This document shows positions 3,090 through 62,752 of a stretch of DNA of 64,000 nucleotides, piece after piece. The notes below the pieces were generated by a model. The model was given only the letters and a program-made list of their open reading frames with translations. It did no database searches and had not been told where the DNA came from. The DNA lies in assembly GCA_951406725.2 (NCBI GenBank), contig OX597824.1:38440001-38504000 (forward strand), read 5' to 3'. Every line of letters starts with the position of its first letter. Within the stretch, counting starts at the first letter, position 1. Source of the DNA: Octopus vulgaris (Eukaryota). A program made the translations under genes and the position numbers.

Positions 3090-3296
3090 ACAATTGCAGC
3101 GTGGAAGGTGTTCATATGCCACTTTGAAACGACCTGCTTACTGACAAAATTCCCACGAGCAATTTTTGTCAGTAAATAGGTTGCGGTTTCAAAGCGACGA
3201 AAATATTTTGACAAATTAAATTTAAATGTTGAAGTGAATCTAAATGTTTTTGTGTGTTTTTAAATGGCTTATAAACACCTTCCACGCTGCAATTGT
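3090..3296. repeat. Fold-back (inverted) repeat; the left arm is an internally deleted copy of the right arm
   Basis: ACAATTGCAGCGTGGAAGGTGTT (3090-3112) pairs with AACACCTTCCACGCTGCAATTGT (3274-3296). An inner pair is 3122-3150 versus 3163-3194. Confidence 0.85.
3165..3215 (+). ncRNA. Degenerate minimal type I hammerhead-like motif (G3 core variant)
   Basis: UUUGUCA-GUAAAUA-G-GUUGC-loop-GCGAC-GAAA-AUAU-UU-UGACAAA: 7-bp helix I, 5-bp helix II, palindromic AAUAUU helix III. The core is mutated (A at position 5). Confidence 0.5.
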
Positions 3297-5663: not shown

Positions 5664-5892
5664 ACCGGAGTAAACACATAAATGTGAAACAAGGTGGAAA
5701 AAAGAGTACTCAAATACCAGTGGTAGAGTAATATGCTTTATTTAAAGCAGCAGAAAATTCAACAAAATCTGTTACTCTGAGTTTCTCGTTGCCGTTCATC
5801 AGACAGTTTTTGCTAGAAAAACTGTTTGATGAACGGCAACGAGAAACTCAGAGTAACAGATTTTGTTGAATTTTCTGCTGCTTTAAATAAAG
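5663..5892 (-). mobile_element. Penelope-pLTR-like element with a 76-bp fold-back
   Basis: Arms 5736-5811 and 5817-5892 differ at one base and enclose a 5-nt spacer. The minus strand reads hammerhead motif, then AATAAA, then a tail. A homologue is at 39162-39381. Confidence 0.7.
5769..5806 (-). ncRNA. Minimal type I hammerhead ribozyme candidate
   Basis: CUGU-CUGAUGA-ACG-GCAA-CGA-GAAA-CUCAGAG-UA^ACAG: intact CUGANGA, GAAA and GUA core, helix I CUGU/ACAG, GNRA-capped helix II with a closing A.A mismatch. Confidence 0.65.
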
Positions 5893-8409: not shown

Positions 8410-9795
<1,386 letters not shown>

Positions 9796-10604
9796 ATTAA
9801 CGAATAGTGGGAATTCTGGACAGGAACTGGTAAACAACTGACGGAATGCCAAAGATTCGCGAAATATTTCAGTAGTATATACCTTTAGAGATGTGTGTCA
9901 CCCACCGCCTCCATCACCTCCTCCACCAATCCCACCATCACCACAGTAGTAGTAGTAGTAGTAGTGCAAGTAAGTAACACATGTGTGAGTATATGAAACA
10001 TACGGTGAGGCGAGGTTGGCGGATGGGAGGTCTGGGAATATAACATTATCAGTAAGTTTCTTGATTGAAATGTAAGATAATGTCAGTGAAATAAAGATAA
10101 AACTAACACAAGAGAGAAAATAAGTAAAATGAATAAATAAATAAGTAAACTATACATAGTAACAACAACGACAATAACAATAACAACAACAGCAACAATA
10201 GTTGAAGTAATAATAATAATAGTAAAAATAAAAACAACTACAACAATAACAGCATCCAGTAAGAATTGTATGGAAGTTGACGAGAAAATATGCATTAATC
10301 ACGTCTGGCATTTTATCTTTGAGTTAGTAGAAGCAGTGTGAGGTCGCGTATAGGTCCGATTAATTAAGGATTTTCTTTCAAAAGGCATGCCAGGCGGATA
10401 AGATATTGGGCTACCTGCTGTTGATGATGCATCGGTTAAAAATTCGCTGCCAGCGCTTCGGTGTGTGTGCGTGCGTGCGTGCGTGCGTACATGCATGTGT
10501 TGGTGGGGTTGATTTTTGTTTGTTTGTTTGTTTGCTTTTTTCCATTTTGTTTATTTTGAAGAACGAAAACAACTATATCACTACCTTATTTATTTCACCT
10601 GTTT

Positions 10605-12347: not shown

Positions 12348-14890
<2,543 letters not shown>

Positions 14891-15110: not shown

Positions 15111-16051
15111 ATTAAGAAATCATCACCGTCGTCGTCGTCGTCGTCGTCATCATCATCATCATCATTCGTTGCCGATCTTTCAAAACGCTTACCTGTTGAT
15201 AGGTAAGAGAATTTGAACATTTTATACTATTACCTAAGTGAATGACATTCATTTTTCATTTGGATAATGCAGAATGAAATATCTTGAACAAGTTTTGGAG
15301 TTTATTTTCACCAAAATTAAGGAGGATATTGGATTGTTTTGTTTTAAGTACTTTTGAATTCTCTTTGTAAATAATAGCCTCTATGATACATCAAAACGAT
15401 ATAATTCCAGCATAAAGAAATCAAAACTACTGAAGAATAAGATACTTGCAACAATAGAAATTGAATATATGTTTTTTTTTTATGTGACACACACTAGAGA
15501 AAATTATTGACGTAATGAAATATAAACTACTGACTTTATGAGTAATAAAGACAGCATACACGTAGACGTTTCACTTAGTGAAGATATTGTCAAGTGAGGG
15601 ATTTCTTATTTGGCCCTAGTAACAAATGAGAATTGAATAGAAAACTTCCGTAAAATAAGTTCACTGCGGCAAACTCGCATAACCAAGGAAAATGCTATTC
15701 TTCCTAATCATCTTATTAAGAATTGGAAAAGAAAACTTTCCTATATTTGACTTGACAGGGATATAGAGGCGTCATTTGAACCAACAAAACTGCAATTAGA
15801 TGTAGCGCTGGTCCACCTCACGTTTGGAGGAGCTCTATATCTCAGTTGAGGTAAATCATATGAATTTCCCTATGTAGTGTTTAACGATGAGGACAAAACT
15901 AGAAGAAAGACCGAAAGGCAGTGATATACAACTTCCCATGCTCTTGTGCCACAGTACATGAAGTGAAATACGAAAATCAGAGTTAGAGTCAATGATGTTG
16001 GTCCTGTTTTCCTTAACACAGTTCACACAGTATCAGAAGGTAGTGTGGAGT

Positions 16052-26716: not shown

Positions 26717-27989
26717 TTGGGTTGGCAACTAAGTTCCCGCCGTTTTTTTAAATTTTGGAATCTATTTTTTTCGAGTATTCTATTTTTGAATCATTTTGGA
26801 ATCTATTTTGTTTTTTCCTTTTTTCTAGTTAATTTTAGTTATTTTTGGTTTATTTTCAGGTCATTAAAATGGAATGTGAAGTGAAGAAAAACGAGCATTT
26901 TCGACACCTTTTTGTTTTTAATCAAGGTTCTAAGGCCGCAAAAGCTGCTCGTGACATTTGTGCTGTGTATGGAGAGGGTGCCATAGCTAAAGGAACCGCT
27001 CTTGCTTGGTATGCCAAGTTCAAAAATGGAAATTTTGACCTCAAAGACGCACCTCGTTCTGACCATCCAGTTATATTCGATGAAGAGCGATTAAACCAAC
27101 TTTTGCACAAAAAATCTCGTCGAACGACAAGGGAACTGGCAGAGAAAATGGAATGCTCCCACACTGCTATAGAAAAGCATCGTAATTCGATGGCAAAGGT
27201 TCAGAAGTATGGAGCATGAGGTCCGCATGCTTTAAGTGACAACAACAAAAATCAGTGAGCCACAATCTCCGCTGGTCTGCTTGCTCGTCACCGCTCAACT
27301 CATGGACACAAGCAACGATTTCTTTACATATTCATTTGTAGCGACGAAAAATGGTGCCTGTACATCAATATGACGCAGCGTAAGGAATGGCTTAGCCCCA
27401 GTAAACAAGTGACACCGCGCGTGAAACAAGATCTTCATCCGCGTAAAACGATATTGTGCGTATGGTGGACTGGGAAGGGATTATTCATTACGAATTGCTT
27501 GAACGGAACCAAACGGTTAACGCGGAACTCTATGTTCAACAGATGGAACGACTCAACGCGGCTATTCAAGAGAAAAGATCTGATCGGCAGCATGGAGTTC
27601 TTCTGCTGCACGACAACGCCCCACCCCCCTCATATCGCCAATATGATCAAGGAAGCCATTTAAACGCATGGCTGGGAAGTGCTCCCACACCCGCCATACT
27701 CTCCTGATTTGGCACCAGCGGATTTCTACCTCTTTCGATCTCTTTCAAATGCTATGCACGGAGTTTCGTTCAATACTGATGCAGAATTGCGAACTTGGTT
27801 GGATCAATTTGTTGAGTCGAAATCGGGTGATTTCTACCAACGAGGTATTGAAAATCTTATTGAACGTTGGGAAGAAGTACTAAACAACAAGGGTAAATAT
27901 ATTATTGATTAATTAGTTGTTATTTTTTATTAGACCTTTTAAAAAATTTGAATTTTAAAAAAACGGCAAGAACTTAGTTGCCAACCCAA
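26717..27989 (+). mobile_element. Full-length mariner (DD34D) element, mellifera-subfamily-like
   Basis: TIRs TTGGGTTGGCAACTAAGTTC / GAACTTAGTTGCCAACCCAA, TA TSD, 1273 bp. Confidence 0.92.
26869..27912 (+). pseudogene. Mariner transposase pseudogene
   Basis: HTH region (ICAVYGEGAI..WYAKFKNGNFDLKDAPRS), *GPHAL (WVPHEL), SDEKW, LLHDNAP and HPPYSPDLAPADFYLFRSL; several stops and frameshifts. Confidence 0.9.
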
Positions 27990-31699: not shown

Positions 31700-33819
31700 A
31701 TTCGTCTTTGTTGTTGCTGCTATTGTTGTTGTCATTGTTGTTGATGCTGTTGTTATTGTTTAGCATCAGGTCAACCCTGATCCAGCAACTCTATGGACAA
31801 AAATGTTATAGCCTTCACAAACATTTATATTTGTTTATCTATTGACATAATCTAAGACTACATTTTCTAATGAGTCCCCTACCTTTGCTTCAGATCAGGC
31901 TTCATCATGCATAACTATAATGGAAGATACCCCAGTCAACACTATCCCTTCTTAGGTCTTAGTTTATCACGGATTACACGAAACCAAACAATCCTTTATT
32001 TTCCTTAAGGTGTTATTTGAGGAAGTTTTAGTTGCTATGACTAACAGGTTGTGCGACCACGTAGAGAGGATACCCTGTTATCTTCTAGTTAAACATTGAG
32101 TCATGTCTTTATTTAGGTAACCTGTAAACAGAAATTGTTAGTATTAGCAATAGACATATTTTATTAAATATTTACACGAAGAAAATAAAATCGAAGTAAA
32201 TGGATTTGCGGAATTGTTAGTTATTGTATAGGGGAAACGGAAGTGAGATAAACAACGACAAAAAAATGTGTTTTGCTTTATCCGGAAACTTAACTATTTT
32301 TGACGTATCTATTCTTTCTTAATACGTTCTGGAGAATTCGAACGCGAATAGGCGATAGCTGTTATTTTCCGTCACCGGAGTACACCTCCTCATTTTAGAC
32401 ATTATGTGTTCATAACACATGCGATTCACCGTTACACCGCGATATTTCGACCTCGTTGTGTCTCTCATCAGTCAAAGCTACCCCGTCGGACCGATGGATC
32501 TGATAAGAACGAATTAAAAACGAATGGATACGTTATTGCTTGGATTATCGCTGTTCTATGTGCACTCTTTGAATTCATATCCGTTTGACAGACATCAGCA
32601 TTCATCAACAAAAATTTTGTTTATTGATTCTTAGAAAAAACAAGGGATCGTGCAGTTGTCAAATTCATTATATATTATATTGTGTGTGTGTGTGTGTGAC
32701 AATTAGAAGACGATTTGGGACAAGTTGAAAAAGAATGCAATATAGAAAGAATTGGAAGCTCGTCGGTACCAGCGATGTATTACATCCGATAGTATTGTCA
32801 ACGCAGATATTCGATGTTTAACTAGATGATGAAGGCCCCTCTCTATGTGACCCTCGGCCCTCGACCTGCAAGAGATAACAGTTAAATCTTCCTCAGACCA
32901 CAGCTTACTCCTTTATAAAATGGTTATTTGGGTTTCGTGTAGTCTGAGATACAATAACACAGAAGATGGTATGGTAACAGTCTTTCATCATAGGTATACT
33001 TAAAGATGGTCGACCTGAAGCAAAGGTAGGACACATTAGGTTATTCTCAAAACGGAGCACTGGCCCGAATGCTTGCTACAGAATGGTCTCCTCTAAAGAC
33101 ACGTATAGCTATGTGGTGATGTTAGATATGGAGACGGATTAAATCTACCAACCAAGAACTAAAAACGCAATAGACTACAGCAAACACCACAAAACATTTC
33201 AAAATACACTTTAGCAATTCCATCAAAGCACCACACAGAATGGTACTTTATTTTATCGACCCTTAATCGATATAAGTCAAAACTAACCTCGGCGGGCATT
33301 GAACTCACAGCGGGGGGAGAGAGAGAGCTGGAACAAATACCATAAGACATTATGTCCTACGTTCTTACGATTCTGCCAATTCGCTGTCAAAAAAAAAAAA
33401 AATTACTGTTTTATAAAATTGCTCTGTTGCCTACTGCGAAGGAACCATTATGCGATCACTCAGCCTGTTAGAAATAGCAGTCTAATCACTCCCAAATGAT
33501 TATATATTAAAATTAAAAAATTAAAATGGGCACAAACGTAAAGCATCCTTAGGGATAACTAGACTTTAGGGATTTGGAAATATCTTTTTTACTGAGGTGA
33601 ACGTGGTAATGGAATATTTTAAAGGCCCACTGCAATATTTGGGAGAAAACTATGTAGAAATCTCTGTGTATGAAATTGAAACAGCATTAAATTCGAATAG
33701 TATGTATTATATTTCACATTGAAAGGCATAATTCTGTAGTATTCATTCGATAGAAAAATCTCTTTTAGATATGCTGTACTATTGTGAATAGCATGCTACT
33801 TCAATTGCATAGTCAGAAA

Positions 33820-35140: not shown

Positions 35141-35653
35141 TTATTATTATTCTAAATTTGTTGTGCAGCCAATTTGATCGACAAACCTTTCAAGACGAGG
35201 CTCCAGTGTAAACGCAGTCCAATGACAGTAGATTAACAAAAGAATTAAAAGAATGTATATCCCCCACCCATTCAGAAGGTGATGGGATCTAATTGAAGGG
35301 TGTTTGACTACTATTTCTAGCAAACCAATGAACCACACCACGTAGATGCTCTACCGTTCTAATCACCACCGGTTAACGGTGGTGATTAGAATAACCGATA
35401 TCGCATCGGATAAAAAAAATCCAAAAACCTTGTGTTGTAATATTTACTTTACGTTGCCTTGCATTCTGAGTTCAAATGCCGTGCACGTACTTTGCCTCTA
35501 ACCATTTCTGGGTCCATTGCAGAAATACCATTTAAGCACAGGGGGTTGATTCACTTGGCAATAACCCCAGCCCTTGATTTTCTGGCCCTCTGCCAATCTT
35601 ATAAATCCTTGTTACAATTATTGGTGCTCCTGTTTTTAAAGGTTTTTCACTGA

Positions 35654-60196: not shown

Positions 60197-60339
60197 TCCC
60201 CCCCCCAGTTAATATGTATATATATGTATATGTGTGTGATATATATACGTGTATACATATGTTACACATACAGAAATACATATACCACAATATGTTGTCT
60301 TACGCTCAGTTAGAAAAGAAAGGAGTCATGGTGGAGTTG

Positions 60340-61865
60340 CTGTGTATATACTAGAGGACCTCACACCCCAGATCCTCCTGTCATATAGTGTGTGACCCTC
60401 AAATTAATATTGTTATATGTACTACATATCGCCCACTGGATGCTCCAAATCATACAGGTAAGTTTGAAGACAGCCTGGCAAAGGCAGAACTTCTCACCAA
60501 ACTGGAGCAACAGTGAATTCCTTTTGGGTGACTTTAATTTCCCTAGTGTGGAATGGCCTGAGAGCCAGATGTTCCCAGGAATGACACACCACCAGCAAGT
60601 ACAGGCGGAGTTTCTGCTCCACCTCACCAATGTTTCTTTCATGGGGCAAAGTGTGTTGCAACTAAACAGGGCAAATAATATACTGGATCTATGATTCACC
60701 AACAAATAGACATTGTCCGTAATGACATCGACGCTGGTCTCGTATCACAGCATAATAGAGCTGTCTATGTATGGACCAAAAGCACCTGCAGACGTAGAGC
60801 CTATAGGAAGCACCTGAAATCTCTCCAAACTGAATTTTCATAAAGCAAACTGGAAAATTGATTGAGAAAGAGATCCTCAAACAAGATTGACGTAAATGCC
60901 TCTCCACACCAGTCATTGTCATGTAACACAAACATTTCATGTCCATAATGTTAGCCACATGTGAAAAATCTTTCCCAGAGCACAAGGCCAACACACAAAA
61001 ACAAGATCCCTAGGGAAAGTAAAATACTTAAAAGATGACGGACAAAGATTGCAAACCGCCAGAACAAACTCCCCAAAAGTAGTGAAAAAGTCTCGCCTGG
61101 AGACATCACTGCTGGAGATAGAGAAAAGTTTGCATCAGTCTCATGAAAAGAGCGAGTAGATAAGGACGCCTGGATTATAGAAAATATCAAGTCGAACCCT
61201 AAAGCTTACTTTAACTTTGCCAAAGAAACAGCCTCAGTACGCCACAAGATGACCCCCTCACAGGAAACCCAATGAGGATAAGTGAAATACTGAACGAACA
61301 GTTCCAAAGTGCGTTCACTACATTTCTGGGACACAAGCAAGTGAACAAACCAGCAGAATTCCTTGCCACTTTACCTGTAAGCAAAGAGGCAAAAATTGAT
61401 TACATCAACATTAAAGAAAATGTAACACTGGCCATAGATGAGATTGACACAAACTCAGCAAATGGATCTATTTCTAATTTGGTAATAAAATGCAAATAGT
61501 TAGTTGAATAGATCCTCCGAACTTTGAAAACGACAGAAAAGGCGACAATAATGGTTCTTTGGGGCGCATATGTCCACAGCTGCTTTGACTACTGCTCCCA
61601 ACTATGGTTACTACTCAGTATAAAATTAAAGGCAGAACTCAAAGCAATCCAACGATGCTACACAAAGAAAACCGTCTCAGTGGAACGCATCAGCTATTAG
61701 GAAAGACCGAAAGAGTTAAAACTTTTCTCCTTAGAACGAATGCGGGAAAATATGCAATGATATACATCTGGAAAATTCTGGAAAGCCATATACCAAACTT
61801 TGGCATTGAAAGTTACACAAACAGCAGAACTGGGCGCCACTGCATAGTGCCAAAGATTCCAATTG
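60340..61865 (+). mobile_element. Decayed CR1/L2-like LINE (APE, linker and 3' end; RT core missing)
   Basis: LLGDFNFP, NILDL, SYHSII, NFHKANWK, IKSNPKAYF, EILNEQFQSAFT, YAMIYIWKILE. Confidence 0.75.
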
Positions 61866-61881
61866 ACTTAAACAAGCAAAA

Positions 61882-61939
<58 letters not shown>

Positions 61940-62071
61940 CCAAACTAACGAATGCTGCTGTTGATTAGCTCCCAGAGGCGATCACCTCTAGCTTGCTATA
62001 TGATGCACGAACCTGCGTTCATAAACCTTCGAACAGAGGAGGTCATCAACTTCTCTTTACTCGCTTGGCAA

Positions 62072-62112
62072 CCACAGACCGGTTTCGGGGTAGTTGCTCC
62101 TTATCAATTTGG
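62072..62112 (-). ncRNA. Minimal type I hammerhead candidate, U3-A8 core variant
   Basis: CCAAA-UUGAUAA-GGAG-CAACUA-CCCC-GAAA-CCG-GUC^UGUGG; palindromic ACCGGU helix III. Confidence 0.6.
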
Positions 62113-62397
62113 GGCAGCCGAGTCCAGCAGGGGTCACTGTTGACCTCTGTTCGAAGGTTTTATTTAAATATATTTAGTGAAAGATATTCACTGATTTTCA
62201 AAAATAGAAATCTTATAATTTCTAAATCTAGATATAGCAGCTGTACTGGATATTAATATTTATTGCTAAACTAACATGGCGGTCTAGAGAAACAGCTGTT
62301 GATTAGCTCCGAGAGGCGATCGCCTCTAACTAGCACGAATATATATAAATAAAACCTTCGAACAGAGGTCAACAGTGACCCCTCTGGACTCAGTTGC

Positions 62398-62440
62398 TCC
62401 ACATTGCTAAGCAGAAACTACCCCGAAACTGGTCTGTGGA
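62398..62440 (+). ncRNA. Decayed sister copy of the U3-A8 hammerhead motif
   Basis: UCCACA-UUGCUAA-GCAG-AAACUA-CCCC-GAAA-CUG-GUC^UGUGGA; perfect 6-bp helix I, with A6 mutated to C. Confidence 0.5.
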
Positions 62441-62632
62441 TGTCAAGCCAGCAAAAGGAAGGTGATGACTTCCCCTGTTCGAAGGTTTATGGACTCAGGT
62501 TCGTGCGTTATATAGCTGAACAACAACAGCATTCGCCCTAATTCTCTGGACTGCCACGTTAGTTTGGCAATAAATATTAATACCCAGTACTGCTGCTATA
62601 TAACTCCTTTAGAGAAATTTTGAAATTATAAC

Positions 62633-62681
<49 letters not shown>

Positions 62682-62752
62682 TATATGTACACATATGCAC
62701 ATACAAACACACACATACACTATCACACAAGCGAGCACACACATACACACAG

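Follow-up and report, generated by a model that had tools for sequence, protein, structure and literature searches.

A decayed hammerhead repeat in Octopus vulgaris, likely a non-LTR retrozyme, with a head-to-head junction symmetric about its 14-bp stem

Introduction

What kind of element leaves two hammerhead-like motifs back to back, each enclosed in the same perfect 14-bp inverted repeat? We address this question for positions 61938-62635 of a 64,000-nucleotide stretch of Octopus vulgaris DNA, referred to here as the window. Two classes of element are relevant. Non-LTR retrozymes form tandem units of 150-450 bp with canonical type I hammerheads and are expressed as circles (PMC7229834), and retrozymes are related to the pseudo-LTRs of Penelope-like elements (PLEs; bioRxiv 2026.07.22.740005). 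PLEs are recognised by partial tandems that have next to them an inverted copy truncated at its 5' end, and by insertion into microsatellites (PMC8557442). Recently active PLEs are listed in the O. vulgaris repeat annotation, whose main text, as far as available, has no mention of ribozyme or retrozyme (PMC13282606).

Results

Layout of the locus

The locus consists of two back-to-back decayed copies, A on the minus and B on the plus strand, and a partial copy C of a repeat of about 340-355 nt, and it sits in animal DNA that is rich in microsatellites and contains pieces of retroelements and mariner. Its features are:

61885..61936, no strand: (TA)26 run adjoining the 3' end of copy A, the likely insertion target
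61938..62174, minus: copy A, with head, hammerhead-bearing rod and a tail shortened by a 23-nt deletion near 61948, as compared with B
62023..62036, minus: copy A, 3' arm of the 14-bp stem
62071..62113, minus: copy A, type I hammerhead; U3 62107, A8 62102, predicted cut 62077/62076
62147..62160, minus: copy A, 5' arm of the 14-bp stem
62161..62203, minus: AT-rich linker from one unit's tail to the next unit's head, also covered by other contigs
62176..62192, minus: small hairpin in the linker
62204..62339, minus: partial copy C, corresponding to the tail of the tandem unit before copy A; its start lies 12-14 nt past the position of the stem's 3' arm
62312..62327: 16-nt palindrome in copy C
62338..62339, no strand: head-to-head inversion junction with 2-nt microhomology, symmetric about the 14-bp stem to within 1 nt
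62338..62635, plus: copy B, with head, hammerhead-bearing rod and tail; a 24-nt deletion takes out the palindrome
62352..62365, plus: copy B, 5' arm of the 14-bp stem
62398..62440, plus: copy B, type I hammerhead; U3 62404, A8 62409, A6C 62407, predicted cut 62434/62435
62475..62488, plus: copy B, 3' arm of the 14-bp stem
62636..62671, no strand: (TA)18 run adjoining the 3' end of copy B

Read on the minus strand, C (62339-62204), the linker (62203-62161) and A (62160-61938) make up about 1.2 head-to-tail units with a tandem period of 338, or about 353 once deletions are allowed for. Copies A and B share 87% identity across 180 nt, and the outer ends of both adjoin (TA)n runs, in which any target duplication would be hidden. 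No open frame spans the unit, which has stops in every sense frame, and no reverse transcriptase (RT) or GIY-YIG ORF was found at the locus. The analysis also turned up no partner PLE.

The repeat in sequencing runs

Alignment to three DNA runs returned 579 (X1), 550 (X3) and 492 (X8) contigs from organisms designated A, B and D, numbers which are not copy numbers, and 42 contigs aligned from a fourth run, X17, which may be RNA and is not counted as evidence of expression. Of 24 runs listed, none of them recorded as RNA, 20 contain part of the stretch and one contains at least half of its words. These contigs place the repeat in a high-copy family. Copy B is identical to an X1 contig (record 8) over 62354-62548, and 62064-62324 is matched by an X3 contig with two differences. 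Majority letters were derived from the 40 difference rows listed out of 218, 24 of them inside the two 138-nt domains bounded by the stems. Of these 24, 23 were used together with one insertion row, 62383 T>G, carried by one contig, being left out, and a letter was adopted if its median share across the three DNA runs exceeded half.

At least seven contig pieces pass from the rod into the linker, reaching 62204-62236, and the loose ends at 62229 and 62237 are tail sequence, so that tail-to-head continuity is a trait of the family. A tandem of two hammerhead-bearing units was seen neither at the locus, with its approximately 1.2 units, nor among the contigs listed. This continuity bears on the reading in which an autonomous Penelope-like element left the copies as solo pseudo-LTR fragments, cut down on insertion, and there is no self-standing retrozyme family. 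The partial tandem, inverted copy and TA target are indeed a PLE layout, U3-A8 was first noted in PLE hammerheads (PMC4209133), and retrozymes and pseudo-LTRs are sister sequences in Xenopus (bioRxiv 2026.07.22.740005). Such a reading could also draw on a 1,420-nt contig of X8 (record 29), which matches 62065-62229 and then continues 3' of the hammerhead with 1,254 unaligned letters, either genomic flank or a partner element. However, the tail passes straight into the next head, here and on other contigs, with no ORF between, and the helix sizes are canonical, without the long helix II and the extra nucleotide of minimal PLE hammerheads, and we consider solo pseudo-LTR fragments unlikely.

Two further features of the contigs were observed. 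Loose ends at 62448 and 62487 mark a second, more distant subfamily, which has the 3' arm and the tail in common with the repeat and a hammerhead region that has diverged, and contig depth, when summed, is roughly tenfold higher over the tail than over the core.

Hammerhead core and helices

The core reads UUGAUAA at 62107-62101 in copy A (minus) and UUGCUAA at 62404-62410 in copy B (plus), in both cases with CCCC-GAAA-C(C/U)G-GUC-UGUGG downstream, and U3 and A8 are present in both copies, as an initial annotation of this DNA had read them. That annotation had taken both core versions at face value. UUGAUAA with a natural U3-A8 stands, while UUGCUAA in copy B is an A6C lesion, since most contig depth carries A at 62407 (64%, 92% and 100% of depth, from 4, 10 and 8 contigs, in the three DNA runs). 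A natural A6C hammerhead variant cleaves at less than 0.1 per minute (PMC3088659). The U3-A8 core, the headline of that annotation, is an already published natural covariation: C3-G8 covaries to U3-A8 in several natural hammerheads that are active in vitro (PMC3088659), and U3-A8 occurs in about 1,300 minimal hammerheads of S. mansoni, in Penelope-like elements (PMC4209133).

All conserved core positions (the 3-8 pair, U4 G5 A6, A9, G12 A13 A14, A15.1-U16.1 and H17) are found in copy A and in the contig majority, and copy B fails at A6. Helices I (6 bp, open), II (4 bp) and III (2 bp) are present with two to four broken pairs per copy, most of which are mended by the majority letters. In copy A the core is intact, helix II has 4 bp with one mismatch and a 6-nt loop, helix III is the palindromic ACCGGU, and two of six pairs in helix I are broken, whereas copy B retains all six pairs of helix I and two of four in helix II. 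Helix II follows A9 directly, with no intervening nucleotide. As candidate partners for a tertiary contact between loops 1 and 2, loop 2 is CAACUA and a U(G/A)C bulge lies opposite U, and both presumably resemble the loops of S. mansoni hammerheads. Canonical metazoan type I hammerheads have a helix I of 6 bp, a helix II of 4 bp and a helix III of 1-2 bp with a palindromic loop (PMC4209133), and the helix sizes of the octopus hammerhead match this architecture. Among the 40 listed of 218 difference rows, no changes fall on position 3, position 8 or the stem arms. Since both copies are decayed, they are poor assay templates, and testing them as they stand would mislead.

The hammerhead could in principle be a chance likeness within an ordinary SINE-like repeat whose family never self-cleaved. 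No Rfam model, and hence no hammerhead, was matched in the window at gathering score, and at E up to 10 none of 23 weak hits in 61800-62750 was a hammerhead. A relaxed hammerhead descriptor gave seven hits in the window against 1.5 in shuffles, five of the seven lying elsewhere. Against chance stand the complete set of core positions and of helices I-III with contig-majority letters, a loop 3 that is palindromic in two versions, and the count of zero tRNA genes in the window (ARAGORN), and we regard an accidental motif as very improbable. The five other descriptor hits, at 15430, 32471, 52380, 56075 and 56257, were set aside, none having a second copy like that of the 340-355-nt repeat; the surroundings of three of them were inspected. 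At 32471 (minus) the hit has one hammerhead-like core of the C3-G8 type (CUGAUGA ... GAAA); its helices are weak, and it may be left over from a different family or be due to chance. Scanning for the pattern further afield gave one match among metagenome contigs (L001), within bacterial-looking coding DNA and judged to be chance, and zero matches in viral contigs.

The 14-bp stem and the rod

The perfect 14-bp inverted repeats described in the initial annotation are exact (62023-62036 with 62147-62160, and 62352-62365 with 62475-62488), the one in copy A extending to 17 bp, and the observation that the stem stayed intact amid divergence is borne out, with 0 of 28 stem positions and 18 of 110 interior positions differing between A and B (Fisher p=0.024, post hoc). 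Between A and B the stem displays no covariation, all 14 of 14 pairs being invariant. In 30 shuffles of the window, exact 14-bp repeats within 200 nt numbered 0.03 per shuffle on average, but four such loci besides those of A and B occur in the actual sequence, and exact inverted repeats of this length are therefore no rarity in the genome.

An inverted repeat that is perfect and invariant and displays no covariation, in a window with further stretches bounded by inverted repeats, could also be taken for the terminal inverted repeats of a MITE, a small DNA transposon that would contain a hammerhead-like stretch by accident. The homology of A and B, however, reaches 14 nt ahead of the repeats and over 25 nt beyond them, and X1 contig depth shows no drop across the outer edge (2,276 at 62129-62151 against 2,052 at 62152-62174). 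Furthermore, family contigs do not end at the repeats, no target duplication is seen, and the interior is a continuous rod leading into helix I. We give a MITE hardly any credence.

With respect to structure, a branched RNA domain of about 140 nt had been suggested. The larger conserved fold is retained in our analysis and the branching is not, since the most plausible reading of the 138-nt domain is an imperfect rod, in which an extended helix I carries a canonical type I hammerhead at its tip. In our hand-built model, helix III has 2 bp and a 2-nt loop, helix II 4 bp and a 6-nt loop and helix I 6 bp, beyond which more helices continue unbranched up to the 14-bp stem. Of 49 modelled pairs, 42 in A and 38 in B are Watson-Crick, rising to 48 on A and 45 on B with contig-majority letters, a gain that is partly circular, as the model was built with the contig letters in view and the contigs are unphased and mix subfamilies. 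Changes on both sides appear to have occurred twice, at 62389/62447 from C-G to U-A and in loop 3, with CG in A against UA at 62430-62431. Both forms of loop 3 are palindromic, which is what cleavage as a dimer would predict. When folded without constraints, neither A nor B formed the hammerhead, and the fold of copy B on its own is branched. Folded as a circle, one period is predicted to reach -96.3 kcal/mol (z -5.4, with 0 of 100 shuffles as low) with 61% of its bases paired, at a GC content of 40.5%.

The stem had also been considered as a signature, left at this locus, of an earlier fold-back. This does not hold, because other contigs carry the stem too, and we take it to be a feature of the family that was not made by fold-back here. 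One stem arm agrees with the Pol III B-box consensus in eight of nine letters. A B-box reading was dropped, as no A box was evident by eye and T runs lie inside the unit.

The inversion junction

The position of the junction is described by the stem. Copy B starts at -14/-12 from its 5' arm and copy C at +12/+14 from the 3' arm, so that the arms of B and C line up as a continuation of the stem, shifted by 1 nt. By chance, such symmetry would be met in about 1% of cases (about 3 in 350 for a 350-nt unit). Because the junction is symmetric about the stem to within 1 nt, it suggests stem-guided self-priming, at one locus and with a second inverted contig that does not fit. In this second head-to-head contig (X17 record 9), about 124 nt lie between the arms against about 220 predicted by symmetry, and it would be symmetric only if a deletion of about 100 nt is assumed. 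An X3 inversion joint at 61987-62119, among the 15 of 73 joints listed, is not symmetric either. The fold-back register itself offers only two terminal pairs, with a pairing probability of at most 0.02 in the DNA fold.

Part of what the initial annotation proposed for this region is retained. The partial copy is real (62204-62339) and is the tail of the preceding tandem unit; repeated template switching is not needed for it, as one inversion is seen. A fold-back itself probably took place, the stem likely having guided the inversion instead of resulting from it.

A serious competing account, to which we assign somewhat less than an even chance, keeps the element but has the inversion arise from two separate rounds of reverse transcription, by twin priming, through a dimeric PLE enzyme or by two insertions into one TA tract; the products would have been joined at the 2-nt microhomology, and their symmetry would be coincidental. 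An Anolis PLE protein cuts and extends both strands in vitro (PMC11167929), A and B are 13% different with both outer ends adjoining TA runs, and the weak terminal pairing of the fold-back and the asymmetric X17 contig point in the same direction. Against two events stand the approximately 1% chance of symmetry within 1 nt and the earlier proposal of self-priming for palindromes at PLE inverted junctions (PMC3846280). Minority letters common to B and C (62598/62235) and to A and B (62056/62455), at which most contig depth differs, also speak against two events, but they fit one event and would equally fit one subfamily. The 13% difference between the arms of A and B rules out a fold-back artefact of the library, although none of the contig pieces listed bridges the junction with 31 letters on both sides. 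One joint listed in the contig alignments, 61948-62537, touches the region of copy A's tail deletion.

Discussion

We propose that the locus, a decayed hammerhead repeat, is likely a non-LTR retrozyme, which would have been moved by a Penelope-like RT and whose stem likely guided the inversion. Directly observed are the layout of the copies, the hammerhead core, a high copy number, tail-to-head continuity, (TA)n on both flanks and the place of the junction. That the repeat is either a retrozyme or derived from a PLE is held with considerable confidence. In the proposed pathway, transcripts of tandem units would cut themselves after GUC, probably in dimeric form via the palindromic helix III, and the rod of about 40 bp ending in the 14-bp stem would keep the cut ends together for circularisation. 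A PLE protein with RT and GIY-YIG functions would then use the RNA, as multimers or circles, as the template for insertion into (TA)n targets. Finally, the first strand would pass the 5' arm of the stem by 12-14 nt, fold back on the stem and prime itself, leaving C and A opposite B. For this last step at this locus we see the odds as balanced; for C to continue into A, the first strand would have had to exceed the surviving copy B in length.

The repeat has several properties of a retrozyme, being a non-coding unit of 150-450 bp with a GC content under 50%, a type I hammerhead and multiple genomic copies, and the layout of a PLE, with a partial tandem, an adjacent inverted copy and a microsatellite target. 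Membership in the non-LTR retrozymes is probable and not complete, expression, self-cleavage and RNA circles being predictions. The nearest described counterparts are animal non-LTR retrozymes, especially the 350-390-bp repeats of Mytilus (Cervera and de la Pena 2020, PMC7229834), which share with the octopus repeat the canonical type I hammerhead, the non-coding character, a length of 150-450 bp, GC under 50%, the head-to-tail order and a highly paired predicted circle. In contrast to them, as far as they are described in the available text, the octopus repeat has a U3-A8 core, a perfect 14-bp distal stem and a PLE-style head-to-head insertion.

Hammerheads of the Cercyon PLE in S. mansoni display the same U3-A8 covariation, with a UUGAUAA core in the supplement, and occur in pairs 100-700 bp apart on opposite strands, as the octopus A/B pair does (PMC4209133). 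They are, however, minimal, with a longer helix II, a short helix I, an extra nucleotide after A9 and no helix III loop (PMC4209133), whereas in the octopus hammerhead the helices are canonical, loop 2 has 6 nt and helix I carries a long extension. The natural core variants compiled by Perreault et al. (2011, PMC3088659) include U3-A8, in the available text without a tie to a retrozyme family. With respect to insertion, the endonuclease-bearing Penelope of Adineta vaga (PMC3846280) and the general PLE layout (PMC8557442) resemble the octopus locus in the partial tandem, the adjacent head-to-head inverted copy and the AT-rich or microsatellite targets. At inverted junctions of the Adineta element, local palindromes of 18-38 bp are present and were interpreted as self-priming (PMC3846280). 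The octopus locus differs in having no ORF and in its candidate guide, a long-range 14-bp stem that encloses the ribozyme, with the junction 12-14 nt outside. In vitro, the Anolis PLE cuts AT-rich DNA, and hammerhead cleavage is dispensable (PMC11167929).

No published report of the octopus repeat family was found in the literature searched, a scope that leaves out most subscription papers and Repbase. The U3-A8 hammerhead is known, and within this scope a retrozyme-like family in this host group is apparently unreported. Here U3-A8 is the natural core of a whole family, set in a type I fold that is canonical and has its loops; C3-G8 descriptors and Rfam miss it, and consequently families with such cores may be undercounted. 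Given the junction geometry, junction counts within a single genome could put to the test the earlier proposal that PLE inversions arise by self-priming. A bolder and rather doubtful version is that of an undescribed, probably octopus, retrozyme family with a canonical U3-A8 hammerhead and its own second-strand primer, the stem making first-strand cDNA snap back shortly beyond it and prime itself. If so, stem-symmetric junctions should recur at hundreds of loci and would give direct sequence proof of the mechanism of PLE head-to-head inversion; if the symmetry does not recur, the locus is an ordinary decayed repeat.

Other elements in the window

Directly upstream, 60300-61880 (plus) is a decayed LINE-type reverse transcriptase region with many stops and frameshifts, which by its motifs we take to be CR1/L2-like and which ends at the (TA)n run holding the hammerhead element. 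A 286-aa open frame at 13884-14744 (minus) matches zf-RVT and is the C-terminal part of a non-LTR retroelement, presumably R4/Dong-like, with 526 relatives at E up to 1e-50; in a protein search with a neighbouring retroelement ORF, the best named matches were from starfish, coral, sea cucumber and shrimp (53-60%). Mariner transposase fragments (HTH_48, Transposase_1) lie at 26839-27663 (plus). A near-perfect, MITE-like fold-back with about 68 bp per arm, a short loop and AT-rich flanks occupies 5736-5892, and exact inverted repeats bound 3090-3296 (23 bp), 1943-2098 (18 bp) and 35357-35391 (15 bp). On the minus strand, 9501-9884 and 12725-13192 form a near-identical pair of SINE-like repeats with a trinucleotide tract, 3.2 kb apart.
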